From positions 1 to 61,169 of the forward strand of contig QPGO01000313.1 of NCBI GenBank assembly GCA_008632985.1: DNA of 61,169 nucleotides. Direction: 5' to 3'. The notes below the pieces were generated by a model. It worked only from the letters and a program-made list of their open reading frames with translations, did no database searches and had not been told where the DNA came from. Of the stretch, positions 22,436 through 61,169 are shown piece after piece. The number at the start of each line of letters is the position of its first letter. Within the stretch, counting starts at the first letter, position 1. The stretch is from Psammoneis japonica (lineage: Eukaryota). A program made the translations under genes and the position numbers.

Positions 22436-24061
22436 ATGTTGGCACACGGATTGGTCACGGCTTCTGCGTCGTCAACACTACCAGAAGCACCTCAACTCGA
22501 CGACCTCGTCAGCCACGCCAACTCTTATGCTTCTGCTCATGGAATTCAGATTGAAATGCGAAACGACTCAGGCTCGTCTTCCTTCGAATGTGCCCCCATC
22601 TCGCTTTTGCCCAACGCATACCCCAAAGAAGCATTCGAGAAAGCAAAAAGTCTGGCACCGCCTTTCAACGAATTGGTGGACCGAATCAGTCGCGATGGCG
22701 AATTCCTCGAGAACACTCTCGGGGCCGGGGTGTCAGAAGCGGACCCTTTTACGGGAAAGTTGCTTGATATGTACAGGGATATTTATCTCGGTGAGGCTGA
22801 TAAAGGGAAGTTTGCACGAATTGCAGATCGTCTCGGGATTCAAAGGAGCGACTACATGCTAAACACAAACGAAGGGTCTGAATACCAGCTTAAACAGGTT
22901 GAGCTCAATACAATTGCGTCTTCGTTTGCGGGCCTGGCGGTCAATGTGGCAGCTTTGCATCGACATTTAGTTTCTCGTTTCGTATACGACGTTGAACCAT
23001 TCCTGCAACGCAACAAGCACGCTGTCGTCGGCACCGATCGAAACACTGGCACTAGAGACGGTGTTCCAGAAAATCCTGCACTCTCTTGTCTTCCAATGGC
23101 TATGAATGTCGCTCACGAACAGTATAGGAAACGGTTTGATTCAGAGAGTCCTGCAATTTTGTTTGTTGTACAAGATGGAGAAACAAATACGGTCGATCAA
23201 CGTATGATCGAGTTCCGTCTGTGGGATACGCATGGAATACCCGTTATTAGAATGTCACTAAGGAAGGCTCAAACAGAACTTGAGCTTGATGAATCCACTG
23301 GAGCTCTATACGTTAAATTGAGAAATTCTGACAGTGGGAAAAGGCAAGAGGTCAGTGTCGTGTACTTTCGAGCTGGCTACGCACCCACCGATTATCAGGA
23401 CGGATACGACGGAATCGAATGGCAGTCTCGGGAAACAATTGAGAGATCCAGGGCGACAAAGTGCCCATGCTTAGGCTTCCACCTTGCTGGAACTAAGAAA
23501 GTTCAGCAAGAACTGGCTCGGCCTGGAACTCTTGAACGTTTCTTCCCAAGTGGCAATGAGGAGCCGGTGGTTGAGTCGATGCGTAGTGCATTTGCAGGTT
23601 TGTACAGCCTTGGCGACGATGCGACAGACGCAGATATTGCTTCGGTTACAGATGTTCTGTCTGGTAAGGAGGGCCAGTATGTGCTGAAGCCACAGAGAGA
23701 AGGCGGAGGCTATAACTATTATGGACGAGACCTGGCGGACAAAATTCGCGACAATGTGGAGGAAAACGAATCAGGAACAATCACTCTGGGCGCCGGGCTG
23801 GCGGAATTTATCCTAATGGAGAGACTGTTTCCTCCAAAACAGGATGCTATACTGCTACGATCTGGTCGCGTAGAAGGCTCTGGAGACAGTATATCGGAAC
23901 TCGGGTGCTTTGGAACTGTCGTCACTACCCATGAAGGCGACATTCTCCATAATGAATTCGCGGGATATCTTCTTCGAACGAAATTCAGCAATGTTGACGA
24001 AGGTGGTGTCGCTTCCGGCTTTGCGACGTTGTCTAGCCCGTATCTTGCTAGCTCATCTTAG
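22436..24061 (+). CDS. GSS: Glutathione synthetase (eukaryotic type)
   Basis: LGIQRSDYM, KQVELNTIASSF, VYFRAGYAP, HLAGTKKVQQ, YVLKPQREGGGYN, SELGCFG, GYLLRTK, EGGVASGF; single exon. Confidence 0.96.
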   Translation: MLAHGLVTASASSTLPEAPQLDDLVSHANSYASAHGIQIEMRNDSGSSSFECAPISLLPNAYPKEAFEKAKSLAPPFNELVDRISRDGEFLENTLGAGVSEADPFTGKLLDMYRDIYLGEADKGKFARIADRLGIQRSDYMLNTNEGSEYQLKQVELNTIASSFAGLAVNVAALHRHLVSRFVYDVEPFLQRNKHAVVGTDRNTGTRDGVPENPALSCLPMAMNVAHEQYRKRFDSESPAILFVVQDGETNTVDQRMIEFRLWDTHGIPVIRMSLRKAQTELELDESTGALYVKLRNSDSGKRQEVSVVYFRAGYAPTDYQDGYDGIEWQSRETIERSRATKCPCLGFHLAGTKKVQQELARPGTLERFFPSGNEEPVVESMRSAFAGLYSLGDDATDADIASVTDVLSGKEGQYVLKPQREGGGYNYYGRDLADKIRDNVEENESGTITLGAGLAEFILMERLFPPKQDAILLRSGRVEGSGDSISELGCFGTVVTTHEGDILHNEFAGYLLRTKFSNVDEGGVASGFATLSSPYLASSS

Positions 24062-24792
24062 AAATAGCGCTTGTACTATTTAGCTAGCTAACTACCTGGT
24101 GGTATAGAGTTACTCAGTGCTCAACATGCATTTACGTAGACTACAAACTCCCTATTTCCTGTTCGACCTAGACATCGCTGAATTGGTCCGGATTAGGCTT
24201 TCCAAATAGAGTGGACCTTGAATCCAATCTTGAGAAGCGCGTCCGAATCAACAAGGCGGCAGCCATCAAAGACAAAGGCGGGCTTGGACATTACTTGTAG
24301 ATGCGTTCGTAATCGAGAGTTTTGAACTCGTCCCACTCCGTAAAGACGCAAATGGCGTGCGCTTCGCCGCAAGCAGAGTGCGCTGCCGGAGCAGTCGTGA
24401 ACAGAACCTTTGCGACCTTGTCTAGCTAGTAGAGCCCGTAGCTGTGCTACTTCATCTTAGAAATAGAGTTTGTACTTTACTAACTAACTAAAGAGTTACT
24501 TAGTACTCAACATGCATTTACGTACACTACAAACTCCCTATTTCCTATTCGATCTCTAGAGATCGCTGAATTTGTCCGGATCAGGCTTTCCAATCGAGTG
24601 GACCTCGAATCCAATCTTGCGAAGCGCGTCCGAATCAACAAGGTTGCGGCCATCAAAGACAAACGCGGGCTTGGACATTGTCTTGTAGATGCGTTCGTAA
24701 TCAAGAGTTTTGAACTCGTCCCATTCGGTCAAGATGCAAATGGCGTGCGCTCCGTCGCAAGCAGAGTACGCATCCGGAGCAGTCGTGACAGA
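24019..24792. repeat. Tandem duplication of about 390 bp (24019-24405 / 24408-24792) covering the convergent 3' ends of GSS and UGDH
   Basis: CTTTGCGAC.TTGTCTAGC, TCATCTTAGAAATAG, CTCAACATGCATTTACGTA.ACTACAAACTCCCTATTTCCT and GGAGCAGTCGTGA occur in the same order in both copies. Confidence 0.92.
24168..24405 (-). pseudogene. Degenerate copy of the UGDH 3' end
   Basis: Aligns to 24556-24792 with substitutions and indels (TCCAAATAG vs TCCAATCG; CATTACTTG vs CATTGTCTTG). Confidence 0.85.
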
Positions 24793-26182: not shown

Positions 26183-26529
26183 CTTGTTAATACACACAGT
26201 CCAGTTATTATGATGCCTGTGTTGGGATGTCAAGTCCCAGCGACACAACATCATGCGTTCGCGGCGCTGACGGGTGACGGGCCATCACAGTTCGTATCCA
26301 ACGGTCGATTCACGTAGAACCAACGCAAGGTTTGTACCAGTGACGTGACCTGCGATGCTTGCGCAAGACGCACGCAAGTGACGCAGACACTGCGGTACGG
26401 GAAACGCAAGACAAAGTCAGCCAGACACACCACACACCACATTCTATCATACAGTCAGCATGACAAGCGAACATTCAACCCAAAGGCAGACAAGCAATGG
26501 CACAAAATGCCAGTCGTCGATGTTCATAC

Positions 26530-27760
26530 TTCGTGTGAATTGCATGTTGTGCAATGATGATTTTGCATGTGCAATGTGCAATGTTGTTGGCATGTGTGCA
26601 GTGCATTTGCACGTGGCATGTCATTGCACAAAATGACTCACCAACAAAAAATGTGTGGCCAAGCATTGCAGCACCCAGGGTTGCTTGACAAGATGGATGA
26701 CCCACTCTGCTCCATCAGCAGGTCAATGTCGCACCCCATCCTCAACCCTCACACCAAAGAGCACCACACCAGCACCAAACATGAGTTCAACGGAACACAC
26801 GAAACTCAACATGAAGCTGCCCTTGTTGGATTCGCCCTTTCTTGGCGATGCTGCTGCTGCTGGCGCATCATCTGTCTTGTCCCCTTTGCCATCAATCACT
26901 TTGGAGCCCCTGGCTGTTTTCACACTGCATCTTCTTTAGAGCTGATCAACAGCACCCCATCCCCACCCACTCCCCTTGGACCACCAAATCCCCTCCTTCC
27001 AATGCCCCCCGCCGACGCCCCGTGCCGCCTGCCTGCCAGAGGAGGGTGTGCATGTTGAAAGCAGCGAAGTTTTTTTCACGATCGTGTCACAGACCCCATG
27101 ACCCACACTTGTTGAAAAGAAGCTTGTGACAAGCTGTGCAAGTTTAAAGAGATGTGACATTGGCTGGAGTGAGTGAAAAGCAAATGTTTGTCCCTGAAAA
27201 TGAGGTCGACACTTGAGCAAAAGTGGCTGTCATTTGTGTGCAATTTTCCTCAATCATTTTTTGTGTTTGTGCACAAAACCAGTTGATGCAACAAATGTGA
27301 CATTTAAGTGGGAGTTCAGAAAGCTCATCCAGACTTGCACACTGCATGAATTGCTCAGGGGACCACTTGTTTTTAGACTTTGCTCTTGTTCTGGAGCTTT
27401 CACAATGGAAGACATCAAAACTCAGCTTTTGTCAGTCACTTCAACTGGGTGTGTTTTGGTGACTGACGAAAGCCGATTTTTGTCAAGCACTTTCAGCGTT
27501 AAGATTTTTGAAAAGCAAAAACATCTTTGCTGCCATTTGCATGCCTCCGGTGCGCCTGCACACAACTGTCCCCATCTGCCATCCTCTCCACTGCCAAAGC
27601 CACTTCTTGGAAAAACACATCCTCCACCACACGTTTTTTTTGCTTGACCCACCACACTTCGACTCCATCACAATGGGGCCTTCAAAGCCTTGGCTTTGCA
27701 CAACCAAATCGCTTGCTGACCAACTCACCCGCTGCTCCGCCAAACTACAGTCCCAGCTCG
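26530..27760. other. TpA/CpG-depleted hypermutated tract 3 between the divergent UGDH and PCGF genes
   Basis: About five TA in 1.2 kb by eye, all in TTA context (about 26937, 27145, 27305, 27374, 27500); TG/CA rich. Confidence 0.85.
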
Positions 27761-27988
27761 CTTATCCCAACCCCAATCCCATCCCTTTCCCTGCCCACAT
27801 TATGCATGTGTGCATGTATGATGTATGACTTACCCCTCCTCAGCGTCTGTCCCTCACCCCGCGCCACTAGGTGACGTTGCACGTGAAGTGAGATAAGTCG
27901 TCGTCGTCGCACGCAAGTCGACGATGATGGATGATCGGCCTCGCCTGAGTTATTAGAAGCGGTACGAATATTCTCTGGGAGTCTCCCG

Positions 27989-44010: not shown

Positions 44011-44214
44011 ATAATACGAGCATTGAAGAGAGTCAAAAAGGATTTTTGAATACAAATGGACGCTTCTTGAGCAAGGAGGAATTGAAAACAGCGAGGACGG
44101 GTCGTGGCGAATGAAATGCATGGGACACCGGATGCCATTGGATCTCGCAATGATTGCGTTGGAGCAGGGGCCTCGCCTTTGCAAGCACTGGATGGACTCA
44201 TGGCTGACGATGAC
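44011..44214 (+). pseudogene. Fragment of a PPIL4-like cyclophilin gene, inverted copy of 54922-55110
   Basis: Aligns to the reverse complement of 54922-55110 (GCTTCTTGAGCAAGGAGGAATTG, GGGTCGTGGCGA, CCATTGGATCTC, GCCTTTGCAAGCACTGGATGGACTCATGG). Confidence 0.85.
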
Positions 44215-47200
44215 CCACTCTCTCAGTGTGGCAGGAACACAAGGGTCTGTCTCTCCACAGTAATCCCAGCTGCTGTCAGCAGTGACGCATCGCAGCAGGA
44301 AATGGGTGCTCCATCCAGCATGCTGGAATGTCGGAGAGAGCAAACACAGTGCTTTGTGGGCTGACAAGCAGCAGGAGTGCTGGTGTGCTGGGGCAAGAAA
44401 TGTGCCATGGAATTTCTGGAGCCAGAGCAGCACACTGACTTTTGCTGCAGCTTCTGCCTGTCAAGCATCCTCTGCTGTGGCCAGCACTGACAATTCTCTG
44501 CACAACCAACTTCCAGATCACAGCTGCAGCTGTTGAGCCTTGCCATCATGCTGTCACCTCAAGGCCCAGCAGAAAGTTGCACTCTCAAGCTCAGCTGCTG
44601 CTTTGGGTTTTTTGGTGCATGTGTGTGCTGCACTTCAAGTGGTTTGGTTGGGAGCTTGGGTGCCTTTTTGTGGCCTTGTTGCAATTCAAGGTGCCTGCTG
44701 CAGAGCTCTGTCTTTGGCTGCTCTTCTTTGATTTCTGTGTGGACCCAAAGCAACTCAGCAGCCTCTTTGTGTGCACCGTGTTTGCACTCTGTGCTTCCTG
44801 CAGCTTTGTTGCCAACAGCAATTGTGCACCCCAGCCAAGCCCCTCAGCAATCCACAGTCATTGTTCCAACGAACGCTCCTTCATGGATGATGACAACCAT
44901 GCTGCAGCAGCAGTTCATGCTGCAGCCAATCAAAATTCTCTGAGCATCAAAAGCAAATGTGAGATGTGTGAGTGCAGCATTTGGTTTGATGTCCATGGTT
45001 GCAAAAAGCCCACTGTGACATTGCAAGCAGTGTGGTGGTGGTGGTGCTCACCAATCTTTTTTGCCACAACTGAAGCTCACATGATCCAAGCAAAGAGTGT
45101 GCCATGACACACAACAGCAAAAGAAAGAGTGCACCCAAGGTGGGAGTGCAGCCAAGTGGGCTGCTTCTTGTTGTCTTGTTGTCCATTGCACCAAACACAT
45201 CACAATCTTTCCATGCAAAAGAGTGGACAGAAGCAGCCAGTGGCTTTTTCCAGCTGGTGCATTGAGTGTTGTCTTGCCATTTTCCAATGTCCCCACCAAA
45301 CAGTTCCTTGTTTTCAAGATTTGTGGCTCTTACAACCTCTGATGCCTTTTTTCTGCTTTGTCATCTGCAAGAGTTGTTGATGACAGCACAAAAGAGATCA
45401 ATGTTGTCACCCACACAAGCACCGCTGAGCTCTTGCTGAAAAGATTTGAAAATGGCAAACTGTCTGCTGTGGCTGCAAGCTCACCAAACAGAAACCTGGT
45501 GCTGTGATTTTTGCCAAATTTTGTCACACAGTGTTGCATCTGGTGTTCTTTTCAATGGAGCTGCAAGATCCAGCAGTGTCTCAAAAATGGAGCATGTCTC
45601 AGGCCACTCCTTGTGCATGTTTTGTGCCTCTCAAGGCATGGCAATGTGCACATCATTGAGGAATGACTCTTAGAGATTTGGAGGTGTTTGTTGTGCATGT
45701 GGCCCCAGGTGTCAACTCCTCTGCAGTCTGCTGGGCTGGTTGGCCTGACATCCCAGCAGTTGATCACAGGCACTTTGACTCCACACAGGACTCAATTGCA
45801 GACTGTTTGCTTGGTCACATTTCTGATGTTCCAGAAGATGCCTGCCCAAACCCACAATTCCCTGATGACCCTTGAGTTGTTGGCACAACAATGACAATCT
45901 TCGAGAGGCTGCTGAGACTGTCACATCCACCAGCATTGAGAGCTTTTGGAGCAAGCACTGACACTCTTAGAGATTTCCTTGATTTCAGAGCAGGGTGCAG
46001 ATGCCCAATGACAGAAAGCCTGTCAATCTGCTTGACCCACTCAAAGGGGTTGCAGTTGAGGCATCAGCTTGGTGTTTTCTGAATTTTTGATTTTGCATGT
46101 CTTCTTTGCTTCACCCTCTGGACAATCATCAGCCCACCCTTGTTCTGGCACACACATGTGCTCAACTGGAGGCAGGTGCAGAGAGTCTCAGTCAGCAGCT
46201 TCTTCATGTTAGAACAAAACTCAGGAAAACTGCACAACGTGGTCTCACAGATCCAAGATGCAGGAAACATGTGTTCCAGAAAACTGCAGGCATTGAGGAT
46301 TGGAATGCTGCAACACCACAACTTCCCACAGTTCAGATGCAGTCACAACAGGTGCTGTGACAAATTTTTTCAAGACTCAGTCATTGGCAGCTCATGGCTC
46401 AAGACAGAGCAGTGTAAAAAAGTGCAGCAAGTCTCCCAAACTGGGTGCACCAAAGGAAGATGTGTGCCACCAAAGTCAATTTTTTGTTGAGAAGGTGGTC
46501 CTTTTGCTGATGCTGGGCACGGATGCCCCCTCCTCACATTGCATGGTGACTCCTGACCTCCACTCTTTCAACACACTGGTGTGTCTCCTCCTCCCAACTT
46601 TGGGTCTTTTCTCAATTCAGCAGGGCTGCACATTTGTGCAGTGTGAAACATGATGAGGCTGCTGCCAACCAATGGAGCCATGTCTTGTCTGGGCATGCCA
46701 ACGCACTCTCCCCCCCAACAACTGCACTGTGTGGGACATGACACTTGCTGCCAAGCAAGAAATTCAAACAGATGTCACACACATCTTGGAAATTTGTCTA
46801 GATGTTGCTCAATGTGTTGCTCTTTGCACCAGCTTGCCAGTTTGCTGTCAAAGGTCTGCTTTGTTGTGTGGCAGGGCTGCCTTTTTTCACCAGCTCCAGC
46901 ACTCCATCCACAATGAGCACAGATGCCAGAGACATGGGCACAATGGGCACAGCCACCAGAGACATGGAGGTGTGCAACACTGTCTTCTTGCAACTTGGTG
47001 TCAGAATGTTTTGTCAGGGTCTCAAACTGCAGACCTGCTGGGCTCACAGCCCTCAGACTTCTGACACAAGTGCCACAGAAGACAGGCCGCTCATCCCACA
47101 CTGCTGCCAGGTTTGCATCTGTTGATCTGTGACTCCAGGAGGCAAAACTGTGGCACATCCTCAACAGGATTGTTTGCTTGGACAACTTGAGAACAAGTTG

Positions 47201-50200
47201 TTCCTGACAACCTGCATGGAGCTTTTGCTGTGTGGACTTGTCAAAGATGTTGTCTGGCTTCACTTCTGAACCCATTGGAGAGGCAACTTTGGCAGGCAAC
47301 TCATTTGATGCTGACTTCTCTGAGAGTGCGGCATGCACAAATCTGACTTTGCATTGGTGCACCAGCTCAAGCTCTCACATGTGGTCCTGCTCTCTTGCTG
47401 ATGCAGAAAACAGACTTTGCCACTCACATCTGCAGCAAATGTCACCCAGGTTGTGCATTTGGCAACATCTGTTGGGGCCCTTCTGGATGCACAAAATTGT
47501 GTGGTTGTGAACCTTTTTGGTGCCATGTGCCACATGCCTGCAGATCATGAAGCTTGTTTCATCAACTTTAACACCAGCACTCTCTTTGAACATTTTTGTC
47601 ATTTTCCCTGGGGTGGCATTGCAAGACCTGCAGGCCAAGTCTTCATGACAGCCTGATGCTTTTCGGGAGGCTGTTGGCCTGCATCAGAGGGCCATGGCAT
47701 GTGCCACAGTGTGGACTCAACAACAGCTTGATTTGGAAGAACCCACCATCTGTGATCTTGCCAAGCAATTGAGCCAGAGCTCATTGCAGTTTTCCTTGCC
47801 AATGGTGGCTCTGAAAAATGCTGACCCCACCAACAGCCAGAGTGGTCCACACAAGGCTGGCAAGTCTGCAGCACATGGTCTGCACTCTCTCATGTGGGCT
47901 GTTCATGATTCAAAACCAAGTGGGCTTTGTTTCCCAGGTTCAAGTGGTGTGTGCAACAGAAACTCATGGGCCAATGTGTGCTGCTGCCATCAACTCAGGA
48001 AAGTTGTCACAGCACTGCATGGTCTTGAAAGAAGCCCACCATGTTGACAGCCAACCCAGAGCTGGAAGGTGCAAAAACATCCAAAAAGAAATCTCACATC
48101 TTGTGCAATCTTTGCCATGTAAAAAGACAAAACAAACTCTGGCTCAGGGCTTGCCAAGATCACATCAGCAGCAGCTTTCAGGTGCCAGCAGACACTGTGG
48201 TCAACCCCAAGGAGTGGCTGCAGGGACCAAGTGACAACAACAAAACTCAAACCAATGTTTCAAGTGCTGGTCTCACATCTCAAGACATTGACCCACACTC
48301 ACAGTGCACCAGCTGGTGCAGCTGGATTGTTCACAGGACACTCTGTCTCTGCTTCATTTCAAGTCAAATGGAAAATTAACTGCATGCTCTGTGTGCACAC
48401 AACCCAGCTGACCATGTTGGAAGAATGAAAAAGCCCAAAAACCACACCCAGCAGGAGATGCTAAAAACTAAATGTCAAAAAAGCAACACATCTCTGTCCT
48501 CTTGCTGCAGCAGGGGATGTGAGAAGTGTGAGCACAGACAGCCAGTTTGAAAGCAACATGGAAATCTGCGTGGAAACAGCAGGGAACAATTGCTCTTCAT
48601 GCAATGCTTCAAATGTCAGTGGGAGTTGGTTGTTGCCAACAAACTGTGATGAACATGACTGCAGCCACTTTGTGTTGCCAAAGGGGTGCAAGCAATGCAC
48701 CTGCAAAGAATGGCAGAGAAATGAAGCTGGGGGTGAAGAAACTGATGACAACAACAATCATCAATCTGTGGTGGCACCAAAGCATTTTGCAGAGTTCAAT
48801 GCAAGGAATGTGGCAGTGCCAATCAGAGCAGGAGTGTAAAAAGGCACACACTGCCATGATGGAGCCATGCCTCCCAAGCACCAGGAAAGCAGCATGTCTC
48901 CTTTGATGCCACTGGCACAACTGCTGCCTGCAGCTCCACATCACCAATGGAGAACAGCACAGAGCTGACCCCACAAAGGACATTTCTTTGGGTGCTTGTG
49001 AGTTGTGGGTGACTGAAGATGCTTCAGAAGAAGCTGCAGAAGCTTTGCAGTGCCACAGTCAATGCCTCCTCTGTGTTTCTGCACTCAAGCTGCAAAAAGA
49101 AGGAAGCTCAGGCTCAAGGGATTAACTGTGTGTGCCAGAAGATCACAGGAGAAGATCAACTCTTTTGACTGTGGAGCCACTCACTTTGAACAATGAATGT
49201 AAAAATGATGCTTTCAAACAGAGCATTTCCTTGGTTGCAACAGTGAACATGGTGGTGAATGCACAGAACACATCAAAAATCACCTCTGCTGGTCTCCAAC
49301 ATGCAAACTCACATGCAAGCCACCCTTGGTTCTTTGCCTCAGCAATGATGCACCTGTGCAAATCATTTGTGAAGCTGATTTTTTCCATTGGCCCCTTCAT
49401 GGAGACACAATCAGAGAAACCAACAAGAGACTGTTTGAACACAAAAATGAAAAAAATTCAATGGGGGGACACAATCCTCTGAACCAAACAATGAATCTGC
49501 TTGCCCCGTTTTTCCAAAGAGGGGGCACTGTCATGGCAGATTTGATGCTGAAGCAACTGCTTTGCTGGCCCAACACTTGCACCAGCACACACCACACTGC
49601 CGCTGCAGTCTCAAATCTCCTGACCCCCAAAGACTTGTGCTCAAGATGTTGATCTGGCCAGAAGCCATGCTGACTTCCATCAAATCTGGCTCACATCTTG
49701 GCCACCCCCAGGATGTCAACATCTCTTGGCTTTGTGCAACCCCTGGGGTTGTTGTTGGAGACCAGCCACTTGGCTTCTTCCATCAAGCTGTGCTGGGCTG
49801 CATTGAAGTGAGGACATCACTGCAGTTGTCAGAGGGACACTGGCAACAATGTGGTCTTTGAATGGATGAGAAACAACATCCATTGACTGAGGGAGCAGCC
49901 ACATGCATCAGACAGACTCTCAAATCATCTCTGCAGCAGCAAGTGTCAGGCATTGGCACAACACACAAAGAGCACAGTTGCTCACACAATCCTGCTGTCT
50001 GAGAGGGTGATGCTTTCCTCCACGCAAACACTCCTCTGGCATTTCTTGAAAATCTCATGTTGGAAATCAGTGCATCTTCAGAGACAACTCTCATTGACAG
50101 GAGGAATGTGCCAGCTACAACATTGGCTGTGAGCAGGAGCTTGGGAGGTGGAGACATGAGGGTGACAAAATTCTTGGCCACTCAAGTGCCACATCATGAA

Positions 50201-52250
50201 GCATGTGCTTTGCATGATGCCCCTTGGCCTCACAGAAGAGCACAAAGCCCACTTCAGCAAAACACCCAAGACCAAGGCAGCAGAAACTCCCTTTTGTGGC
50301 ATGGAGCTGTGTCTCTGCAGTTCATTGCTCAACATCTTTGATCCTCTAAAGTGTGCAGAGCACATTCTGAAACCCCAGGTTGCTTGGTCTGTCAACAAAA
50401 GTTCAACAGCGGCTCATGTGCTGTTGACAACACACCCATTCAGATCAACATCTTTTGTGCATTTCCCCAACCCTTGTCTTGTCTTGTCTTGACCATGCCT
50501 TTTCTTTGTTGAAGGACAGTTGGTTGTTGTGGTGCAATGTTTTGCACATGATGGGCACCACAAACTTGAGCGACCAAGTGCTGCTCATGTCATGTGATGA
50601 AGTGGGCTTTCACCGATCATGGCAAGCCTCACCCAAAACCACTGCATGACAAAGTGGACACAGAAATTCATTCTGCTTGCCAGGCAATGCACTGCAACAG
50701 TCAACGCCAGCTGTCAGCATGACAATGCACTCTTTGCAAAATGCAAGGGTTGGTGCCAGGTTCCCAAAACTTGCAGCACAAGGAGAGCTCAAAGACAAGA
50801 CACCACCCATGGAGAAGCACCACAGGCATGTGTTGTTGTGCTTGGCATTTGCCTTTCCTGCTGCAAGTGCTCCCCAACACACTTTTGAACAACAAGAGCT
50901 GTCTTGAAAATCCAGTGGGAAAAACAGTGGTGGGAACACTGCCAAGCATGATCTGCCACACTGACCACATTGCCAGGTGGCAGCAGATGCTCAGGTTTTA
51001 CAATTTCTTTGGCACTGCTGAGGCTTGGGTCAACCTCAACATTTGATTGTGACAGCAGCAGCCTCTGGACACAACTGCAGCTTGTGTGATGGGAGTCATT
51101 TTCTTGTGTGATTTGAGCACATGTCTTTGCATCATTCCAAACCTTGTCAGCTCAGCTCACTGCATTGGCTCCTGAGCCAAATCAAGCATCATTTGGCTTG
51201 AATTGCCCAGGTGTTTTTTCCTTGCAGAAGGACAACAACTTGTGCTCCATGGGCCCGGTGCTTGCCTCAGGTCTCTGTTTGTGCAACCCAAAGGTGTCAA
51301 CACTGTCAGACACTGCTGCATGAGTGAACAGCTTGATGTGCATGGATCCCCACCAGCTTTGACTAGCAGTGCCTGATGCAAAATTGATTTTTTGATCAAC
51401 AGTGGAAGAAGCTGTCAACAAATGTGTTGAAGCAATGGAGAACAACCTGCGAAATGTTTGTGAGTGGCCTCAAGACAAGAGAGTCATCCATGGGCAGCTG
51501 GCTTGCCCCTGCGTCTGGCTGAAATGTGGGTGAAACCTTTTCAGCCCATTCTCCTCATCTTTGCAGAGAACAGTTTCTGAGTGTGTGTGTGCCCCAAACA
51601 GCTTTGAAACATTCCCGATGATCAGCACCAAAGTGGAGCTGCAAACAGAGCTGGGCACAGCTCCCTCTTCTTTGGACTGCTTTGTGGCAGTTGATCCATC
51701 CTTGACCCCAGAAGACAAGTGGAACACCCCCCCACTCTGGCTGCACATGATGACATTCCAGTGCCTCATTTGACTCTTGCAGATTTTGAGCAAAGACTGC
51801 ACAAAACCTCCCACAGCTTGGGAGTTGCCACTGTTTGTTCTTGACCACCATTTGATTTTGTGCACTTTGCAGTGGTTGGCAGCAACAGACCCATCTTTGG
51901 TGAACTGCTGATCTCTCCTCTCCTGTGTGTGGCAGAGGCTCATGTGCTGCAGAGCACTGTCTCATTGAAAGCCCCTTTTTTGCTTGACTGATGTGGAGCT
52001 CCACTGCATTGCACCTGAAAGGCAGGCAACTTGCCATGTTGTGTGCTGACGGCATTCTCCAACTGGGTCCACACTTCTTGATTGATTGAGAGCCACAAAC
52101 AGAATGAGACAAAAAGCCTGGCTGAGGCACGTTGCTTGGCTGGCACATTCCCTCCCAGCTGTGAGGTGTGGTCAACTGAGTCTGCCATGCTTTGTGTCAG
52201 TGGCTTTCCAACATGATAAAGTCCAAGGCCAAGTTGGAGCTCCTGTGCAC
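44060..52250. other. TpA/CpG-depleted hypermutated tract 4 (about 8 kb, degenerate; ancestral content not identified)
   Basis: About 20 TA by eye in 44230-52240, none in 44263-45330; CpG rare; dense overlapping Tyr-free ORFs. Confidence 0.92.
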
Positions 52251-53168
52251 ATAGTGCGTCCTCAACTTTTCCAATTTTCCCTTTCGTACCTGTTGTTTCT
52301 TTTGCTGGAAGATCGTCACGCTCGAATATCACCGCGTTTCTGACTGAGTCGGAACAATGAAAGCAATCGCCTTGAACAATCCTAAGGTTTATTGATCTCA
52401 GCGAGCATGAGAGCGGAACTCTTGCCAAACGATACTCACTAATACCATTCCAGCACCATCTCTTGACTTCTACGCTTGAAAGTGTAGATAGCAAACCATT
52501 TTCTAGGATGAACCCTGATGACTGAAACCGCACAGTCAAAGTTGTGAGGTCATTCAGCACTGGTGATACATGTAGAAGTGTGTATCTCTCTTTTTCTTCA
52601 GCGTCATTCGATTCTGGTAGCCAGCCCACAACATCTCCCTTTGTTCTTCCTTGCTGGAGTGCTATTCCTGACGCCTGCACTCTTTAAGTACGTGTCTTCG
52701 CCTATCGAGTCAGCGATAGTACAAGGAACCGTCACTTACATCCGCTTGAAGGCTGCCTCTGAGGACACCCATCGGCATGATTCACTCTTTGGGGTGGAGG
52801 TAGACTATTTTATACTGGAGCCATGTCTTGTGACTGCTCTAATCTGAGATTTGGATTGAAGTGCAACATCGTCATATTTCTCTACTAAATATGGATAATA
52901 AGGTAGTGAGTAGTCCAAAGAATCAAGACCAAGCAGAGAAGCCAGGGGCGTCAATGCGGACAGACAATTGAGGCATGAAGTATGAACTCACGCGAAAGGC
53001 TCGAAACGGATACTTGTTGATAATGCACGAAAGCGCCTTGGCCTTGGCAAAATGAAGCAGTCCAACTGGACTGCGTCCCTCTCTTTGATACGAGCGATGA
53101 ACCAGAAACGTCCAGCACGTTTAACGTGACAGGATTGAAAGCATTTCGCTTGCAGCAGGAAATTACAA

Positions 53169-54220
53169 TGTTGGCAGTCGAGTCGGCCTGACTGAAACAA
53201 AAAACGGGCGCCTGCTGAAAGTCCGTGTAGCTGGGAGCCTTGGATGATGTTATCGTCAAGGAGGTAATGGGACCTGTTGTCGTTGAAAGGTTTCCATGTA
53301 GCTCGACAAAGTGAGACGAGAGTGACAATTCGGTAGTGAGCGTACAGTGAGTTGCAAGAAGCCCAAGCGCCTTAGCAGGAGCAGTTAGGAAACTCGTATT
53401 TCTCATTCTTTTGTCAACGTATGGTACCAGATGACCGATTCCTTCCGTGTGGATGCAGTGGAATGTTCTCAGCCTTGTTGAATGCGAGCAGGTTTGGAGG
53501 ATGCCGGAGAAGCAAGTTGGAGCGACTTCTCTGCGTAGAGGAATAGGCAGTTTGAAGCAAAAGGAAGTATAGATACCGACCGTATGTCCAAAGATAGCGT
53601 GAGAGAGAATGCTTAGCGAAGAGCGGCCCTTGATGCCTGATCTGAATCGCCTCTGGCCCTCTGGCAGCGCCATGCGCCATGGGTATCGTGACACGCGCCA
53701 CTGAGGTTTCATTCTTGTATGTTGAGAGGTGTTGGCAGTCGAGTCGGCCTGCTATCATAAAACATGCACGTACTGAAAGTCCATGTAGCTGGGAGCCTTC
53801 GATGATGTTATTGGCGAGGAGTTAGGGGACTTGTCGTCGTTGAAAGGTTTTCCAAGTAGCTCGACAAGGTGAGACGAGAATGACGATTCGGTAGTGAGCG
53901 TAAAGTGAGTTGCAAGAAACCCAAGCGCCGCAGCAGGAGCACTTATGAAACTCGTATTTCTCATTCTTTTGTCAACGTATGGTACCAAATGACTGATTCC
54001 TTCAGTGTGGATGCAGTAGAATGTTCTCAGCGTACCTTGTTGAATGCGAGCTGGTTAAGAGGATAAGTTGCAGCGACTTCTCTGCGTAGAGGAATGGACA
54101 GTTTGAAGCGAAAGGAAGCAAAGACTTAGCGAAAAGCGGCTGTTGGTGCCTCATCTGAATCGCCTCTGACCCTCTGGCAGCGCCATGGGTATTGTGGCAT
54201 GCGCCAGTGCTGTTTATTGT
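53169..54220. repeat. Diverged tandem duplication, period about 561 bp (53169-53715 / 53730-54220), of a decayed minus-strand coding fragment
   Basis: TGTTGGCAGTCGAGTCGGCCTG at 53169 and 53730; both copies encode VPYVDKRMRNTSF..AP..ALG.LATH.TLTTE on the minus strand. Confidence 0.9.
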
Positions 54221-54253
54221 TGCATCATGCGTATGTTGTGTTTTCATGATGCA

Positions 54254-55314
54254 TTAGAGACGCGCCGGTTTCATGTCTCGAATAATTTCAGCCGTGACCT
54301 CAGGATCAAAGCGTGAAAAGATCAGTTCCGAGTCCTCATCGTCCGTCACTGGATTCAATTTGCAAACAAACAAAATATTCTTGGGAGCCTTGATAACTAC
54401 CTACTCTACGGTATAAAAACGAAACACAGTGCAGCGGAGAGAAAAAGAAGCAGAACCACAGAACCACACAAGTGAATCATACTCACCGGCAGATGGCAAG
54501 TCCCCCAACACTTCCAAAACAACAGCACGCGATATGTCTTCTCGTTAATGATTCTCTTCTTCTCGTTGCCTGGCTTTTTCGTGAGTTTCGTCTTCCTACT
54601 TCTCTCCGTCCTCTTCATTTGCGTGAATGCGGTGCTCCACGACTTCTTCTGGAGGACGATAATGTATTCAGGAGGCGCCGTCACTGTATCATCTTCCAAA
54701 AGAACTCCACGACGTTTAAGCAAGTCTTTCCATTCCGGGAGGATCATCAAATGCATAATGAATCACAACGATGCACAATACGTTGTATATCCGCAAAAGG
54801 TCGTCCGTCGGCATCGCAATATACCGCTTGAATCTTGTCTAGCACACCGTCTTCATCCTCCGCCACGGTTCCCAACGACAAGAATGTTGTTGCTGTTGTT
54901 CGGCATTGTTGGGCGACGCCACCATGAGTCCATCCAGTGCTTGCAAAGGCCCCTGTTCCAACGTAACCATAACCTGAGATCCAATGGTATCAGGTATCCC
55001 ATTCATTTCAGTCGCCACGACCCTTCCTCGCTGTTGCAATTCCTCCTTGCTCAAGAAGCATCCTTTTGTTTTCAAAAAACGATTTTGACTCTCTTCGATA
55101 CTCGTATTGTTTGTTGTAGCGTCGATCAGTCCATATCATAGATACCGCCGCCGCCGGCAAAATGTTGTAAATCAGCGTGTTGGTGTATTACTTCTAGGTA
55201 AGATTAGTGGCGAGCGTTGGCTAATTTCAAAACATTACGAGCGAGCGCTGGATTCTCCTCGACATCCAATTCAATGACGACATCGCCAATTGAAGTTTCC
55301 AACAACAACGACAT
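54254..55314 (-). pseudogene. PPIL4: PPIL4/CYP59-like cyclophilin-RRM pseudogene, truncated inside the RRM, intron 54486-54406 retained
   Basis: Read across frameshifts: [107 protein letters not shown]; many stops and indels. Confidence 0.88.
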
Positions 55315-55439
55315 GCTTTTGTGGCAATGCTGTGCCAGCAGTTTCGAGTTGTTTTGTTGTTGATGTTGCGCGGTGTTCATTGTTCGTTTTCAGTGTTCAT
55401 TCAATCATGGAGCTGCTGCATGCACGCGCGCGGCTCGCG

Positions 55440-58330
55440 CGGCCCGTCTCGTTGGTGCTCCGCTGCGCCTCTGGGTGGATTCCTCTAAGTTGAGATGGAC
55501 TGGAATGGCTTTGCCAGCGGATGCGCAAGCCTCATTCCCAAACCCAAGCTGGAACGGCAGGGCCAGAGGGCAGGAGAGGTGGGAGCGTTGAACTGTCCAC
55601 TTGCGGCTCTTGCTCTTGCTGGTTGCTCTTCGGAAGAATGAGAAGAGGGGGTGATGAAGAGCAAGTGGCCGTTGCTCCAGTCTTGCAAACACGTGTTCAA
55701 ATTTTTAAACGACTGTGGGACAAGTGACCCAGTGGCCAGGAATGGGTCATTTCATCTCGTTGAACCTCCCAAGGTTGGCAGCTTGTGCTGCCCATCTCAT
55801 CAGTTCTCCTGCGCCTCTGCAGAGTGAGTGAGCGCAGGTGGGCTCTGAGTTGATGGACTGGAATGGCTTTGCTGGCGGATGCGCAAGCCTTGTTCCCAAA
55901 CCCAAGCTGGAACAGCAGGGCCTTCCAGTGCCACCACAGTGCAATGCACTTGAAGGCATGCACCACTGGGTGGGTGGGTGAGGCTGGGGGGCTGGGGTGA
56001 TCCAGCCCTGTGGATGTGGGACATTCATGGGGACGTCGGCGTTGGGATGGAGGACGAAGTCGCCTCCGGCCAGCATGTTGCAAGCAAAACTGTGCAAAAT
56101 TGGTTTGGCTTGCAGATGCAAGCAGTGCAACATTTTGTTGGATTGCCAATGGCCCAAGAGCCGAATGAGGTCTGTGTCGACCTTGGTGCAGAGGCAGGAG
56201 TGCCATGGCACCCGCTGCGTGAAGGCACTGAGCAGCGACATCTCGGGTGTTAAAGCCGGGATTTGCCAGACCACATGTGATGATGGCTGTGCGCAGAGTG
56301 CTTGTGATGTCAGCTGGTGACACCCAGTGCCGTGCATCATTGTGAAAATGGATGGCAAGGGGGTGTCAGGGAGCACGTTGTGAGATCAAAGTTGTCGGAC
56401 GTGCCGGACGAGTGCTTTGGCAGGGCACAAATTGGGGTGTCCCGAGAGGCTGAGTCCCAAAACTTCTCCACAGATGCCATTGTGCAGTGAAAGCAAGAGT
56501 GGCAAAGGTGGCAGTGTAAAGCTGAGCATTGGGGTCTTGGAGGGTGTCTAGATGGGCTCCTCTCCAGATGCCAGGCAGACGTTGGCAAGGCGGAACATGG
56601 TGTTGAAGGGGGTCACGGTGCATTCACTGGGATGCAGGAGGCAAAAGAAGGCAATGGCTGTCACATCAGCATCCACTTGAGTGCCTGCTGGGTCAGTGCT
56701 GTGGGGGTGGCAGCATGCATGATCCAGGTGAGGACAGCGATGGGGACCAGTTTGATGCGGTCTGGTGGCGGATCCTCTTTCTTGCAGTGATGGACTTGCC
56801 TGGCAAGTTGGAAATCCATGCCACCTCAGGGTGTGTGCCGCAGATCCGCAGACCCCATGGCAACAAACGTTTGGCCAACCAACCACACGGCATCCTCAGT
56901 GGTTCGTCCTCTAGTGGGATTGCCGTGCAGGGCAAGGATGCCAGCTTGGTGATGGTGGAGGAAGACTTGCAGGAAGACAATGGGGTCATTGATGTCTTGG
57001 AGTGATGGGTCAATGGCCAAAGAGGTGCAAAACTTGCACCATTTGTCCCAACGGGCATTGGTGATGGAGGCTCTGGAATCAGCAACACCATGGGCGACGC
57101 CGTGTTGAGCAGCATTGAGGTCACGAATGAACTCAGCCCAGATGGTGGCATCCAGAGGTGCCAGGAGAGTTTCTGCGGGTAAAAACGATTAAAGTGACAA
57201 AGGAAATCTCAGTTGGCAAGGGACTGAAGGTGTGAGGCATCATCATCAGCAGAGTTGAGGTGTCCAGGCCAACAATCATGCTGTCCAAGGTGGTGATGGC
57301 AACATTGGTGGAAGGCTTGATGTTGAAGAAGCTTGGAAGCTGGTTTGATGGTGGTGGAGGAGCCTTTGCATTGCCAGCGCATGGTGCCTGAGTTGTCAGT
57401 GCGCGAGAGGCCAGTGCACTCACAAATGTCAAAACAGTCCAGTGGGTGGTGGTGCAGGATTGGATGACGCTCCCAGCGAGTTCTAAATCAGTGTTGGCAA
57501 TGGGGCCACGTGGGTTGGTGCAGGTGGCAAGCTGGGAGGTCACACATTTGGGGAAAGGCATGCGCCAGACAACCGGTCCTGCATCGCACTGAGTGTGCTG
57601 TCAGTTGTTGCTAAAGCACAGGGTGGTGGCTCGCTGGACAGTGGCAGCAGTTGGGAGGAGCATGTCTCCAGCGCTGTGGCCGGCAACATCATGGCAGCCA
57701 GTGATGGTGGGTTGCAACAGAACCAGCTCCTGAGTGCGAATGGGTTGGGACTCCAGGGTTGGTTTGAGGTCACGAAAATTGTTTGGAGTGGAGTGGGAAT
57801 TGGATGTGATGCAGACTCTGGAGTCCAGAGCAGTGTGTTGGAGGTTCTCTTGAACCTCTGAGTGGAGACCGCGTGAACCCGGGATGGCAAGGCCGAGCAA
57901 GCACAGTTCACCTGAGAGCTTGTGGCAGTCTGTGGCGGTGGTGCATTTGCAGGTGCAAGGAAAATGCTGGTGCAGTGTGGTGCAAAGCCGTTCATGCCCA
58001 CAGGGCATGAGGTGGATGGTCATGGAGTTGGCATTGTTGATCCACCCCAGGACTTCTTTCTGCGTGGACCAAGTGGCATCACCCTGGCAAAGCTTCTTGA
58101 CAGAAACTGGCTCCTTGTGGGTGATGGGGTCTTGGGAGTCCTTGAGGGGCCAAAAGATGTCATCCAGTGTGTGTGGCATGATGTGACAGATGTGACGGCA
58201 TGCCTGTCAAGAGCCTTGGGAGGCACCAATGAAGTTGTTGACACAGATCTTGACACATCAGAGGCATTGAACAATGTGAGCCATCAAATTAAATGGTGGG
58301 CATGTGTGGCTCTGACAAGGGCACCGGATC
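55440..58330 (-). mobile_element. Degenerate DIRS/Ngaro-type tyrosine-recombinase retrotransposon (RT C-part, RNase H, YR, 3' repeats)
   Basis: RT CVNNFIG (58245-58225, from YVDDFIG), KEPVSVKKL..GDATWSTQKEVLGW; RNase H NTDLELAG; YR DPIVFLQVF..RTTEDAV..VGQTF, AFFCLLHPSECT, LHAAGAMALL, LIRLLGHWQSNKMLHCLHLQA. Confidence 0.9.
55494..55922. repeat. 71-bp direct repeat pair (55494-55564 / 55852-55922) downstream of the YR gene, probable split terminal repeats
   Basis: GATGGACTGGAATGGCTTTGC..GCGGATGCGCAAGCCT..TTCCCAAACCCAAGCTGGAAC.GCAGGGCC twice; weaker similarity extends about 50 bp upstream. Confidence 0.88.
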
Positions 58331-61169
58331 ATGTGCAAACAACTGGTTGCCATGACAAAGCTGGAGTGTGGCATTTTTCCAACAAACAACAAATTGCTCA
58401 CCAGCAGGCTGTGGCTCAGCTTGCCTGGACTGTTGTGTTGGTTGCATGTCATGATTGTGTGCTTTGATGCTTGCACAACAGCAGAAGGTTGAGCAGGACT
58501 TTCCCACACAAATTGAGTGCTTTGCTGTCATCAAGAGATCTGCTTTTGTCCAACAGGATTGAAAAGTGCTGCATCATGGCTGCTTGTCACATTGTGTCTC
58601 CCAGCCTCTGGCATGTGACAAACTCTCAGGAGGACAACACTGGACAGTGGCAAGCATTTTTTAATGATTGCTTCTTCATGATGCTTTTGTGCACCAGGCT
58701 GGTCTTGGCACCAGTGCAAGTTTTTAAAAAAACACACAGAAACCAGCAGGATGGACAGGTCAGATTGACATGCACATTTAGAGTGCTTGGAGTGAGCAGA
58801 TTGACATGCACATTGTTTGGGGTGCTTGGAGTGAGCTGTGGGGCAAAGATGATGGACAAGGCAAACCATGGCAACAGCACTTGTGTGCACCAGAATCAGG
58901 AACCAAGCAGCACCAGACAGCTGAAGCTGGGCCAGCAACCATTTGAGGCTGGTGATGGCATCATTTTGCACAAGACAGGGATCACCTGCATGATGATTTG
59001 GGTGGAAACCTTGCTCACTGAGTGTAAAGAACAAGGGAAGCTGGCTTGCAATGATGACAACAATTTGCCAGTCATTTGGGTTGGTGCCTCAAAGTGACAC
59101 CAGGACAGACCAGCCATTGTTGTCACTTGTTTTGCCATGCTGTTCTGTGTGCCATGAGTGTGGGCTGGTCTGCTGCTGCTGGTGTGTTGTTGCTGGCCAG
59201 AGGTGCAGAGTGGCACCAGAACAATTGATTTTGGTCCCATCATCTTCAGCTGTGCTTCTCCAATTGTGGCAGCTTTCTCAACATGGTTGCAGGCATGTTG
59301 TTTTGGGACTCTCGTGGCAAGCAATCAAGTGGCCAACACACTTTGAAAATGTGGAAACTTCTCAGCCCTTTTCTGCTGCCAGTTGAAACGGCACAGTTTC
59401 GCCAAAGTTTGTTGGTCCTCTGAGTCAGAAGCGGAGTGTGCTCTTTGGCGTGCAGAATTTTGGTCCAACAGACGATCAGATGATGATCACACTGATCTTT
59501 GTCCAGCTGCATGTGTGACATTTGATGAGTTCAATTTTGCACGCCGATGGTCAACTGTCATTTCTCAATGACTTTGGAAGTTGTTCATGATGCTGTGATG
59601 ACCACCGTCATGCATTGCAAGCTCTGTTGAGATGTCTCAGTCTGAGTCTTTTAAATTCCCCAAACCCACCCTGTGTTGTCTGTGGCACTGTTGGGTCCCT
59701 GGGGGATTGTTCATGTTTAGGAATGAAAATTTCCCAGGCCAAACCATTGGGTTTCAACATCAGACCATTTGTGTTTGGGATTGGAGCCCACAACCTGTCA
59801 TGAGGACTTGGCTCGATGAGTCATCACTCCAAGTTTGGCACATGTTGTGATGCTGCATTTTTTTGTGTTTTGTGGCACTGCTCAAGAAGGAAAGTTGGCC
59901 ATGATCTTGAGCAAATCTCAAACAGCAAGCAGCTGCTGCTTTTCAGCACAGGCAACTGGCATGTGAGGCATGTCTGAGTCCACAACACACCCACATCATG
60001 AGCTGCACACAACAAAGAGTGCTCCTCTAATCAAAGAACAGCACCTTGCAATAAAACTGCAACAGAGCATGCTGTGACTGAAGAGTGATTGTTGTTTTTG
60101 TGATCCCTTGGGCAACAGAAGGACCTTTTGTTTGAACATCAGGGTGTGACACAGTTTTCAGAGCACAGACAGACATGTTGAAGTGAAAGCAATGCAAATG
60201 GCTGTCAACAATGTGGTGAATCCACATTTGCAACTCACTCAAGATGGGTCTCATGCTCACTCTTTTTAGCTTCTGCCTGCACCAGGACAACATGGCAATC
60301 AGAGTGGAGCAGTGTTTGTGATCCACATGAAAAGTCTGGGGATTGGCAAGACTGAAAAGCAGAACAGTCAGCAAGCTGTGAAATTCGAACACAGAAGCCA
60401 AACTGAGTGGGAAGTCATTGAGAATCTAAAGGTGTGATTTGTGTTGATGGATTGTGGCAAATGAGCTGGCTGGACAAAGTGAGCAAAGAGACAGTCTCTG
60501 GAGAACCTTGCTGTGAGGAAGCTGTGAGGGTCTGCTGAAAGAGGGTGCAACAAAGTTGTGTCAAACAGGGAGAAACATCAACATGGGTGAGGATGCAACT
60601 GAGTGCAGAAGCACAAAAGATTTGAAGCAGAGTGGGTGCATGATGCCATTGCTGAGTCTGGCTGGTCGACAGGCAATGGATGCACAGAGACTGCTGCAAG
60701 GAGAACAATTGAGCATGTTGGAAGAGAGTTCTGGCCAGAGATGCAGGTGCTGGTGTCTTTGAGATGGGAGAACAAACCAGAGCAGCTGGGGTGGTGACCA
60801 TCTGGCAAAACTGCATTTGGGAGAAGAAGGACAAGGCAATGTGGAGAAAGCCACACAATTGCCACATGAAACAGGGTGCAATCTGCAAGATGCAGAAGAA
60901 GGTGAATTCATTTGATGCAATTGTGGGGCAGTGCATGACAAAGGCAGTCCATCACAAGGTTGAAGGAGTGTGACAGAGTTTGTGAGGGTTGCAAAGGAGT
61001 GGGACACAGTGGCCTTGTTGAAAATTCCCTGATCTTTTGTTCAATGCAAACAAGGGAATCTGCTTGCATGTTCAGGCTGCCAAAGCTTGGAAGCAGTTGA
61101 TGCGCGTTCATCAGGACAAAGAAGCAAGGAGTGCTTCAAGATTGTTGTGGTCACTTCGTGAGCATTGTT

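Follow-up and report, generated by a model that had tools for sequence, protein, structure and literature searches.

Near-Complete Loss of TpA and Partial Loss of CpG in a Dead Ngaro-Type Retrotransposon Fragment of a Diatom Suggest Two Dinucleotide-Directed Mutation Processes

We examined a 61,169-nucleotide stretch of the diatom Psammoneis japonica (GenBank assembly GCA_008632985.1, contig QPGO01000313.1, positions 1 to 61,169 of the forward strand; hereafter the window) that holds a dead retroelement of very unusual composition. We consider it quite probable that this element is a Ngaro-type fragment whose TpA and CpG dinucleotides were converted to TpG and CpA in situ, by two processes acting on silenced transposon DNA. 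By the features set out below, the minus-strand segment 56026-58284 is identified as the 3' two-thirds of a Ngaro-type tyrosine-recombinase retrotransposon, 5'-truncated and lying in nuclear DNA. Its dinucleotide depletion is beyond chance: between 56085 and 58260 there are 8 TA (observed/expected ratio, o/e, 0.07) and 56 CG (0.36), together with 277 TG (1.67) and 205 CA (1.99), and all other dinucleotides lie near expectation. A scan of metagenome contigs recovered 78 loci with intact relatives, many as units of about 6 kb, and all 78 are ordinary in this respect (TA o/e 0.37-0.85, CG o/e 0.60-1.17). Over the homologous span (2260 nt) the element has 8 TA, 62 CG, 212 TG, and 285 CA, against medians of 59, 152, 129, and 177 in 57 relatives; pyrimidine-purine (YR) steps, on the other hand, number 0.251 per nt in the element and 0.237 in the median relative. 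In all, about 90% of TpA and about 55% of CpG have been lost from the element, CpG loss reaching about 90% farther upstream, while GC content is unchanged (0.48-0.55).

The substitutions behind this composition are highly selective. Ancestral residues were taken from a family consensus, in which 150 representative proteins and the open reading frames (ORFs) of the 78 loci were projected onto the element's codons by tblastn, giving 902 Henikoff-weighted columns; mismatches explained by one base change were classed by type and neighboring base, opportunities being the non-synonymous changes open to the relatives' actual codons at the same columns. At a conservation of at least 0.7, CG>CA accounts for 26 events in 52.7 opportunities, CG>TG for 11.5 in 37.1, TA>TG for 4.5 in 8.2, and TA>CA for 3 in 11.2. 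Transitions elsewhere are rare (A>G 0 in 86.7, T>C 1 in 104, C>T 3 in 112.5, G>A 2 in 127.1), as are transversions (14 in 1286), and 12 multi-step mismatches complete the total of 77. Expressed per non-synonymous opportunity, A>G/T>C changes are seen at 27-55% of TpA sites versus 0-1% elsewhere, and C>T/G>A changes at 31-49% of CpG sites versus about 2% elsewhere. The original prediction, made from the sequence alone, hinged on TpA changes exceeding other A-to-G transitions, and they do so by 7.5 in 19.4 against 1 in 190.7; at a conservation of at least 0.5 the TA classes still stand at 14.8 in 51.5, against 7 in 319.8 for other A>G/T>C changes (Fisher's test on rounded counts: TpA p 8e-9 at 0.7 and 2e-9 at 0.5; CpG p 1e-19). 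The TpA excess over other A/T transitions is real, on few events. Since all other classes amount to at most 2% of their opportunities, an upper bound that includes true lineage differences, TpA and CpG rates lie some two orders of magnitude above the background. A "best revertant" profile score with dinucleotide controls was also tried and set aside as non-discriminating, given that the controls share bases with TG/CA sites and that free choice raises the score.

The same changes have reached four motifs of the element, each column of which is covered by 55-176 relatives:

Motif 1, 58234-58245, minus strand: TGT GTC AAC AAC, now CVNN, mutated motif C of the reverse transcriptase (RT)
Motif 2, 56946-56957, minus strand: CAC CAT CAC CAA, now HHHQ, in the N-terminal domain of the recombinase
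Motif 3, 56620-56643, minus strand: TGC CTC CTG CAT CCC AGT GAA TGC, now CLLHPSEC, first conserved Arg box of the recombinase
Motif 4, 56119-56154, minus strand: GHWQSNKMLHCL, mutated from GRWRSDEMLRYL, C-terminal box of the recombinase

All four codon strings had been named in the original prediction and are present on the minus strand, motifs 1 and 4 exactly where it had put them, motifs 2 and 3 one base away. In motif 1 the family has Y/F-V-D-D (Y 0.51, V 0.80, D 0.95, D 0.94; n 167-175). Motif 2 shows no consensus at its first His, followed by R 0.85, Y 0.51, and R 0.87, with RVR as the majority in the recombinase alignment A2. Motif 3 reads F 0.78, L, L, R 0.98, P 1.00, G 1.00, E 1.00, Y 0.97 (FLLRPGEY in A2). 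For motif 4, whose codons are GGC CAT TGG CAA TCC AAC AAA ATG TTG CAC TGC TTG, the consensus is G, R 1.00, W 1.00, R 0.62, S, D 1.00, E 0.52, M, L, R 0.98, Y 0.97, L 1.00, and that of A2 is GRWRSDEMLRYL; the codon of its conserved Tyr, at 56124-56122, is now TGC. The proposed reversions thus restore the consensus residue, except at the first residue of motif 3, which is Phe and not Tyr in 78% of relatives, and at the first His of motif 2, where there is no consensus to restore.

Beyond the motifs, 11 conserved Tyr columns now hold Cys 5, His 2, Phe 2, Lys 1, and Tyr 1 in the element, and 48 conserved Arg columns hold Arg 16, Cys 9, His 9, Gln 5, Trp 2, a stop 1, and other residues 6, such that Arg has given way to Cys, His, Gln, Trp, or a stop in 26 of the 48. 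Among the relatives, Cys or His occupies 67 of 1123 cells at the Tyr columns, and Cys, His, Gln, or Trp 176 of 3944 cells at the Arg columns. The direction of change claimed earlier, from TA and CG to TG and CA, is borne out, since relatives whose composition is normal show Tyr, Arg, and Asp at the columns of the element's TG/CA-derived residues; so is the claim that both strands were changed, given that conserved Tyr became both Cys (5) and His (2) and conserved Arg both Cys (9) and His (9). Across its translated frames the element keeps a single Tyr codon (TAC at 57181), and contains 5.4% Cys and 6.9% His versus 1.4% and 3.8% in the 150 relatives. Changing TG/CA back to TA or CG restores 73 of 166 mismatches at a conservation of at least 0.5, 47 of 77 at 0.7, and 18 of 23 at 0.9, whereas two control rules, with an equal number of choices at the same sites and transversions in place of transitions, restore 21 and 12, 10 and 4, and 2 and 0, respectively. 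The assertion that the element can be decoded by such reversions only was therefore too strong: they account for most damage at conserved positions (the 47 of 77), but the copy also bears other substitutions, at least four frameshifts, and a 5' truncation.

The identity of the element had to be established through its relatives. Pfam searches with present-day ORFs and with a three-frame read-through of the element (X at stops) returned no relevant family. Using phmmer of HMMER, the read-through frame of 57133-58527 was compared with 1.84 billion proteins and found 1076 relatives at E of at most 1e-3, 22 of them at E of at most 1e-30, the closest being 53% identical; their amino-acid composition is normal and their RVT_1 matches are weak, below Pfam's cut-off in 7 of 16 intact proteins (E 6e-6 to 7e-4) and in 2 of 3 pol ORFs. 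Intact relatives are laid out as ORF1 (about 700-750 codons), one in-frame stop, pol (about 840 codons), and ORF3 (about 390 codons), the latter overlapping the last 400 nt or so of pol in another frame, with both frames conserved. ORF3 of one relative (L001), modeled with AlphaFold at a mean predicted local distance difference test score of 85.6, retrieved Cre recombinase as its best Foldseek match (E 1.3e-6, template modeling score 0.67) among 34 matches at E of at most 0.001, including Xer recombinases and phage or transposon integrases. By sequence alone, ORF3 gives a weak Pfam Phage_integrase match, to the C-terminal part, in 9 of 25 relatives (best E 7.6e-4), and the recombinase alignment profile met only chance P450 matches (E about 0.9) among PDB sequences. 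No integrase domain was detected in the nine ORFs scanned, and no methyltransferase family at E of at most 0.01 in three of three pol ORFs and six other ORFs, although a divergent domain could escape Pfam. In the three loci examined for repeats (L016, L005, and L038), intact relatives carry split direct repeats in the order A1-B1-A2-B2, the internal ones downstream of the recombinase, and no inverted repeat pair was found in any of the three. In L016 the A repeats lie at 1-84 and 6143-6226 and the B repeats at 5818-6003 and 6246-6431, and L038 is alike; B1 and B2 are spaced 428 and 463 nt in L016 and L038, respectively, downstream of ORF3 and with A2 between them. Split direct repeats without inverted repeats and without a methyltransferase are features given for Ngaro in PMC4157794. 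DIRS1 and PAT differ from Ngaro in this last point, the methyltransferase domain being absent in Ngaro, and none was detected in the relatives here. The DIRS/Ngaro class named in the original prediction agrees with this assemblage of ORF1, RT-bearing pol, Cre-fold ORF3, and split direct repeats, which is the Ngaro layout. In the relatives here, ORF1 and pol are separated by an in-frame stop and ORF3 overlaps pol, and the element is likened to Ngaro by its described features.

Some further traits of the relatives were observed along the way. ORF1 and pol share a frame with one stop codon between them in L003, L006, L013, L015, L016, and other loci, which suggests stop read-through. On some metagenome contigs copies stand head to tail in tandem (L005:1-11295 and L038:1-8396, with periods of 6457 and 6423 nt), and in L005 an array of 85-nt repeats occupies 3843-4096, downstream of ORF3.

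Against this layout, three parts of the window copy could be recognized:

Pol remnant, 56798-58284, minus strand: RT motif C, thumb, and downstream pol, matching positions 353-832 of an 841-position profile
Tyrosine recombinase (ORF3) remnant, 56026-57191, minus strand: its first 390 nt or so overlap the end of pol in another frame
3' terminal region, 55483-55922, minus strand: two copies of a direct repeat of about 80 nt

The pol profile, built from 63 pol ORFs of metagenome relatives, matches in two hmmsearch segments, 58284-57457 (independent E-value, i-E, 1.5e-73) and 57439-56798 (i-E 2.3e-47), separated by one frameshift near 57440-57457; in-frame TGA codons stand at 58260, 58209, 57603, and 57211. 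By its position, the downstream part of pol should hold RNase H. Neither pol profile positions 1-352 nor the ORF1 profile found a match in the window copy or upstream of it, and the copy is thus a 5'-truncated fragment starting just ahead of RT motif C. The recombinase profile (alignment A2) matches 57191-56697 (profile positions 5-169, i-E 6.6e-50) and 56700-56026 (positions 167-392, i-E 1.9e-42), with 56554-56195 in a third frame, implying at least three frameshifts (at about 56697, 56554, and 56195); the whole copy has accordingly at least four frameshifts, besides the four in-frame TGA of pol. The repeats of the terminal region, at 55843-55922 and 55483-55564, are 90% alike and about 360 nt apart (self-blastn and alignment), and stand where intact relatives carry B1 and B2; A1 is missing from the window copy due to the truncation.

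The signature is not a property of the element alone. It extends beyond the fragment to unrelated DNA and is found again in four further islands, the five TA/CG-poor islands of the window (about 16.9-18.3, 20.8-22.3, 26.4-27.8, 44.1-52.3, and 55.2-61.2 kb, from sliding o/e and island counts) being:

TA-depleted island holding the fragment, 55240-61169: TA almost absent from 55240 to the end of the window
Further islands with the same signature, 16901-18300, 20801-22300, 26401-27800, and 44101-52300: hardly any TA or CG left, TG and CA raised about twofold

Within the islands TA o/e is 0.03-0.3, whereas the DNA between them, made up of ordinary genes, has a TA o/e of 0.5-0.7 and a CG o/e of about 1.0; YR steps are as frequent in the islands (243 per kb) as in the background (238 per kb). 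The 8.2-kb island (44101-52300) has 22 TA and 37 CG against 963 TG and 976 CA. Stop codons in the islands are nearly all TGA, with 398 TGA versus 32 TAA and TAG over the six frames of the 8.2-kb island. Given both orientations of both changes, and their spread into DNA that is not part of the element, we conclude that the mutations arose in situ, in double-stranded DNA at this locus, and not on RNA or complementary DNA (cDNA) ahead of integration. A strand bias, seemingly indicated by a GC skew of +0.25, was considered and rejected, as relatives show the same coding-strand skew and CA/TG ratio (1.34 in the element, median 1.43 in relatives). A 190-bp inverted repeat, its copies 85% alike, offers a local comparison: it lies at 54922-55108, outside the island, and at 44013-44203, on an island edge, adjoining the low-coordinate edges of both large islands, and at all four of its TA versus TG/CA differences TA is found in the copy outside the island.

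The two losses are independent of each other. Relative to background density, 7-18% of TA survives in every island, versus 8-54% of CG. Along 55240-61169, CpG is dense until about 55470, then reduced by half over the element and by about 90% from 57.5 kb onward, so that the boundaries differ (55240 for TpA, 55470 for CpG) and the 230 bp of island edge between them contain no TA yet about 20 CG. Upstream of the fragment, 58290-61169 is hypermutated as well (CG o/e about 0.1), and the family's ORF1 and pol N-terminal profiles found no match there; judged by these profiles, it is not recognizably part of the Ngaro-type element and would belong to something else, and the truncated fragment may lie within or next to a second dead element.

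Among the public relatives, four are Tyr-poor with normal Arg (P0099, P0027, P0060, and P0001; Tyr 0-0.4%), and in three others many conserved Arg are replaced by Cys, His, Gln, or Trp while Tyr is kept (P0051, P0109, and P0134). P0099 shows Cys or His at three of three Tyr columns, retains Arg at 12 of 12, and has 0.4% Tyr; in P0051, 9 of 14 Arg columns are changed and Tyr is kept at three of five. It is possible, judging from the proteins, that these represent copies hypermutated at TA only (P0099 type) or at CG only (P0051 type) in other genomes.

The TpA that remain are informative on the process. Only 51 are left in 17.25 kb of islands, evenly spread, and 36 of these (71%) lie in YTAR, as compared with 245 of 1470 (17%) in the background (p 1e-16) and 19% in intact relatives; by sequence, the survivors in YTAR are TTAA 14, CTAA/TTAG 17, and CTAG 5. 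RTAY, on the contrary, accounts for 1 of 51 survivors versus 470 of 1470 in the background. Survival by context falls from 55% for TTAA and 31% for CTAA/TTAG to 0% for ATAC/GTAT, ATAG/CTAT, and GTAC, whereas that of CpG is flatter, from 8% (TCGA) to 35% (CCGG). We favor a TpA process that acts preferentially on RTAY and poorly on TTAA, because this needs only a modest difference in rate. The flank pattern could instead reflect a second process that makes new TpA through C>T at YCA; the CA/TG pool available for such new TpA is not skewed toward YTAR-type contexts.

Overall, we suggest that two processes would have acted on these islands. One would be cytosine deamination at CpG in silenced transposon DNA. 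The other would be a TpA-specific change of A to G (T to C on the opposite strand), of the kind measured in Bigelowiella natans; its likeliest agent would be an adenine deaminase acting on DNA, adenine becoming inosine and being copied as G. This second process would be the quicker of the two and would proceed to saturation, wiping out RTAY and largely sparing TTAA. The outcome would be an irreversible inactivation, in which Tyr codons turn into Cys or His and CGN codons of Arg into Cys, His, Gln, Trp, or a stop, with loss of the RT motif C residues and of the catalytic Arg and Tyr of the recombinase. In diatoms, according to PMC9998398, transposons are CG-methylated, via DNMT5a, and some species carry a DNMT4 related to RID, the factor behind fungal repeat-induced point mutation (RIP), with no known role. 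A broader proposal, which we put forward tentatively and rate slightly below an even chance, is that diatoms may possess an active defense mutator that deaminates adenine at TpA of duplex DNA in silenced transposon islands (RTAY preferred, TTAA spared), beside a cytosine mutator at CpG, and that it may belong to the same ancient system as that of Bigelowiella, widespread in the stramenopile-alveolate-rhizarian assemblage (SAR).

The sole description of TpA hypermutation that we found in the literature, for any organism, is the 2026 preprint on B. natans (Mettrop et al., 10.64898/2026.01.13.699255); no report of TpA-directed mutation in diatoms was found in the full-text literature, the coverage of which leaves out most subscription journals. 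According to that preprint, which deals with integrated giant-virus and virophage DNA, two viral regions in mutation-accumulation lines change about 1000-fold faster than the remaining genome; of the 231 mutations in these insertions 230 are A>G or T>C, falling on TpA, and TpA-poor coding sequences are enriched in reverse transcriptase and DDE domains. Its authors suggest that an ADAT2-like adenine deaminase acts on DNA (10.64898/2026.01.13.699255). Common to B. natans and the diatom islands are A>G/T>C changes at TpA in both orientations, loss of TpA with gain of CpA and TpG, and a confinement to foreign or selfish DNA that spares host genes. The differences are also clear. The former host is a rhizarian, the present one a diatom (stramenopile); the targets there are viral insertions with a TpA Rho of 0.45, here retrotransposon islands at saturation (o/e 0.03-0.08); and there the process was observed live, whereas here only its footprint is seen. 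In the preprint text mutations are almost exclusively AT>GC, and neither CpG nor flanking context is mentioned, whereas in the diatom islands CpG is converted, YTAR/TTAA is spared, and CpG>TpG/CpA is the larger class (37.5 of the 77 conserved mismatches). Given that the TpA and CpG losses are separable, the TpA component may still be the B. natans process.

Fungal systems offer a second comparison. RIP of ascomycetes and the CpG-directed transposon hypermutation of basidiomycetes (PMC3318451) share with the present case dinucleotide-specific transitions, made on both strands and in place, that saturate and inactivate their targets. Yet fungal RIP turns CpA/TpG into TpA and leaves AT-rich DNA, whereas here the TpA change runs in the opposite direction, GC content is unchanged, and adenine or thymine is mutated too; with TpA depleted to an o/e of 0.07 and CpA/TpG doubled, the RIP family is excluded. 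Methylation-driven decay of CpG, as in vertebrates and plants, likewise converts CG to TG/CA on both strands of silenced repeats, in an age-graded manner; but it spares TpA, and a depletion to o/e 0.03-0.1 with at most 2% of other change is stronger than ordinary decay.

The alternative that fares best, although we think it improbable, is a passive decay, in which modified bases of heterochromatin at CpG and TpA (5-methylcytosine, and N6-methyladenine or an oxidized thymine such as 5-hydroxymethyluracil) spontaneously deaminate or mispair and palindromic sites slowly drain to TG/CA. The graded survival of CpG among islands (8-54%) is what age-dependent decay predicts, its maximum in GC-rich flanks (CCGG 35% vs. 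TCGA 8%) fits spontaneous deamination, and CG methylation of diatom transposons is documented (PMC9998398). However, with about 90% of TpA gone while other classes stay within 2% of opportunities, decay would need a rate ratio of the order of 100; the loss of TA is saturated in every island, even where half of CpG is left. Neither do we know of any TpA-directed modification of adenine or thymine in diatoms. In B. natans the TpA change comes in bursts and in some lines only, which suggests a regulated activity (10.64898/2026.01.13.699255).

An artifact, by which true TA and CG carrying modified bases were miscalled as TG/CA in sequencing or consensus building, is very unlikely. Modified bases do cause motif-specific errors on some platforms, and the three sequencing runs in which the stretch was found, none of RNA, share a single sample and study and are possibly the assembly's own data; the contigs of one run hold 0.65 of the sampled 31-mers exactly, which is not independent support against an artifact. 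But a symmetric modification should yield conflicting calls on the two strands instead of a clean TG or CA per site, the copy is also broken by its 5' truncation, at least four frameshifts, and transversions, and relatives that are Tyr-poor (P0099, P0027, P0060, and P0001) or Arg-replaced (P0051, P0109, and P0134) occur in other data sets. Editing before integration, with ADAR-like A-to-I change on RNA and APOBEC-like C-to-U change on minus-strand cDNA followed by insertion of the hyper-edited copy, is scarcely credible. In animals retroelements are targeted by both kinds of enzyme. The B. natans preprint cites a preference of ADAR for a 5' U (10.64898/2026.01.13.699255). Such editing is rejected because it would be one-stranded and element-confined, whereas both orientations are found on the coding strand (CG>TG 11.5, CG>CA 26, TA>TG 4.5, TA>CA 3) and the signature extends into non-element DNA and four other islands; in addition, APOBEC contexts are not CpG, and to our knowledge ADAR is confined to animals. 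A native composition of the family, avoiding TA and CG without any mutation, has next to no chance of being true, with nothing but the composition itself in its favor and, against it, the ordinary TA and CG content of 78 of 78 relatives and the near absence of Tyr, raised Cys and His, and replaced catalytic residues of the element.

Several points weigh against the account that we prefer, of in situ conversion of TpA and CpG by two processes. The TpA class consists of few inferred events (7.5 at a conservation of at least 0.7, 14.8 at 0.5), and 30 of the 77 conserved mismatches are not of the hypermutation type. Ancestral states come from the family consensus and not from a close intact copy, since protein identity to the nearest relative is no higher than 53%. 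A slow chemical decay that depends on base modification would lead to the same end state, and the making of new TpA at YCA, considered above, would take the flank pattern away from the TpA process. Assembly or base-calling error is unlikely, being ruled out only indirectly, on internal grounds. Finally, the B. natans process is not reported at CpG, and a shared mechanism is assumed.

Targeted point mutation of selfish DNA was long held to be a fungal, cytosine-acting speciality, and the adenine-at-TpA process was first reported in 2026, from one rhizarian. The same dinucleotide rule at saturation in diatom transposon islands adds a different major lineage, together with CpG conversion and a flank preference, and the TpA process is probably widespread. 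If the broader proposal of a diatom defense mutator is true, it would mean a natural, sequence-specific DNA adenine editor, a second and mechanistically distinct counterpart of fungal RIP. For genome scans it supplies a marker (TA and CG both near zero, TG/CA doubled, YR total constant) that could be correlated with candidate deaminase genes, and RTAY versus TTAA are concrete substrates on which a natural DNA adenine deaminase could be assayed biochemically. Through hypermutation such islands escape domain annotation, the present sequence being without any Pfam match: the 8.2-kb island gave no relevant Pfam family in six frames, none of the four further islands has a Pfam match, and only one of the five islands was recognized as a transposon.

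Outside the islands, the genes of the window are long and almost intron-free, and include glutathione synthetase, UDP-glucose dehydrogenase, Hsp33, and CNOT1, the latter with an exon of 1738 codons. For glutathione synthetase 2756 homologues were recovered at E of at most 1e-30, and of the best 120 all those that bear a name come from diatoms (Ditylum, Seminavis, Cylindrotheca, Nitzschia, Fistulifera, Bacillariaceae), with identities of 61-64% to the named NCBI/UniRef diatom entries and up to 71% to unnamed matches. The original prediction had presumed a diatom origin, which these matches uphold for the host; the relatives of the element, by contrast, are not confirmed as diatom. Three local tandem duplications lie outside the islands, at 53169-54225 (79% identity), 24019-24792 (84.5%), and 4489-4820 (88%), and a single N stands at 43759, just ahead of the 8.2-kb island.

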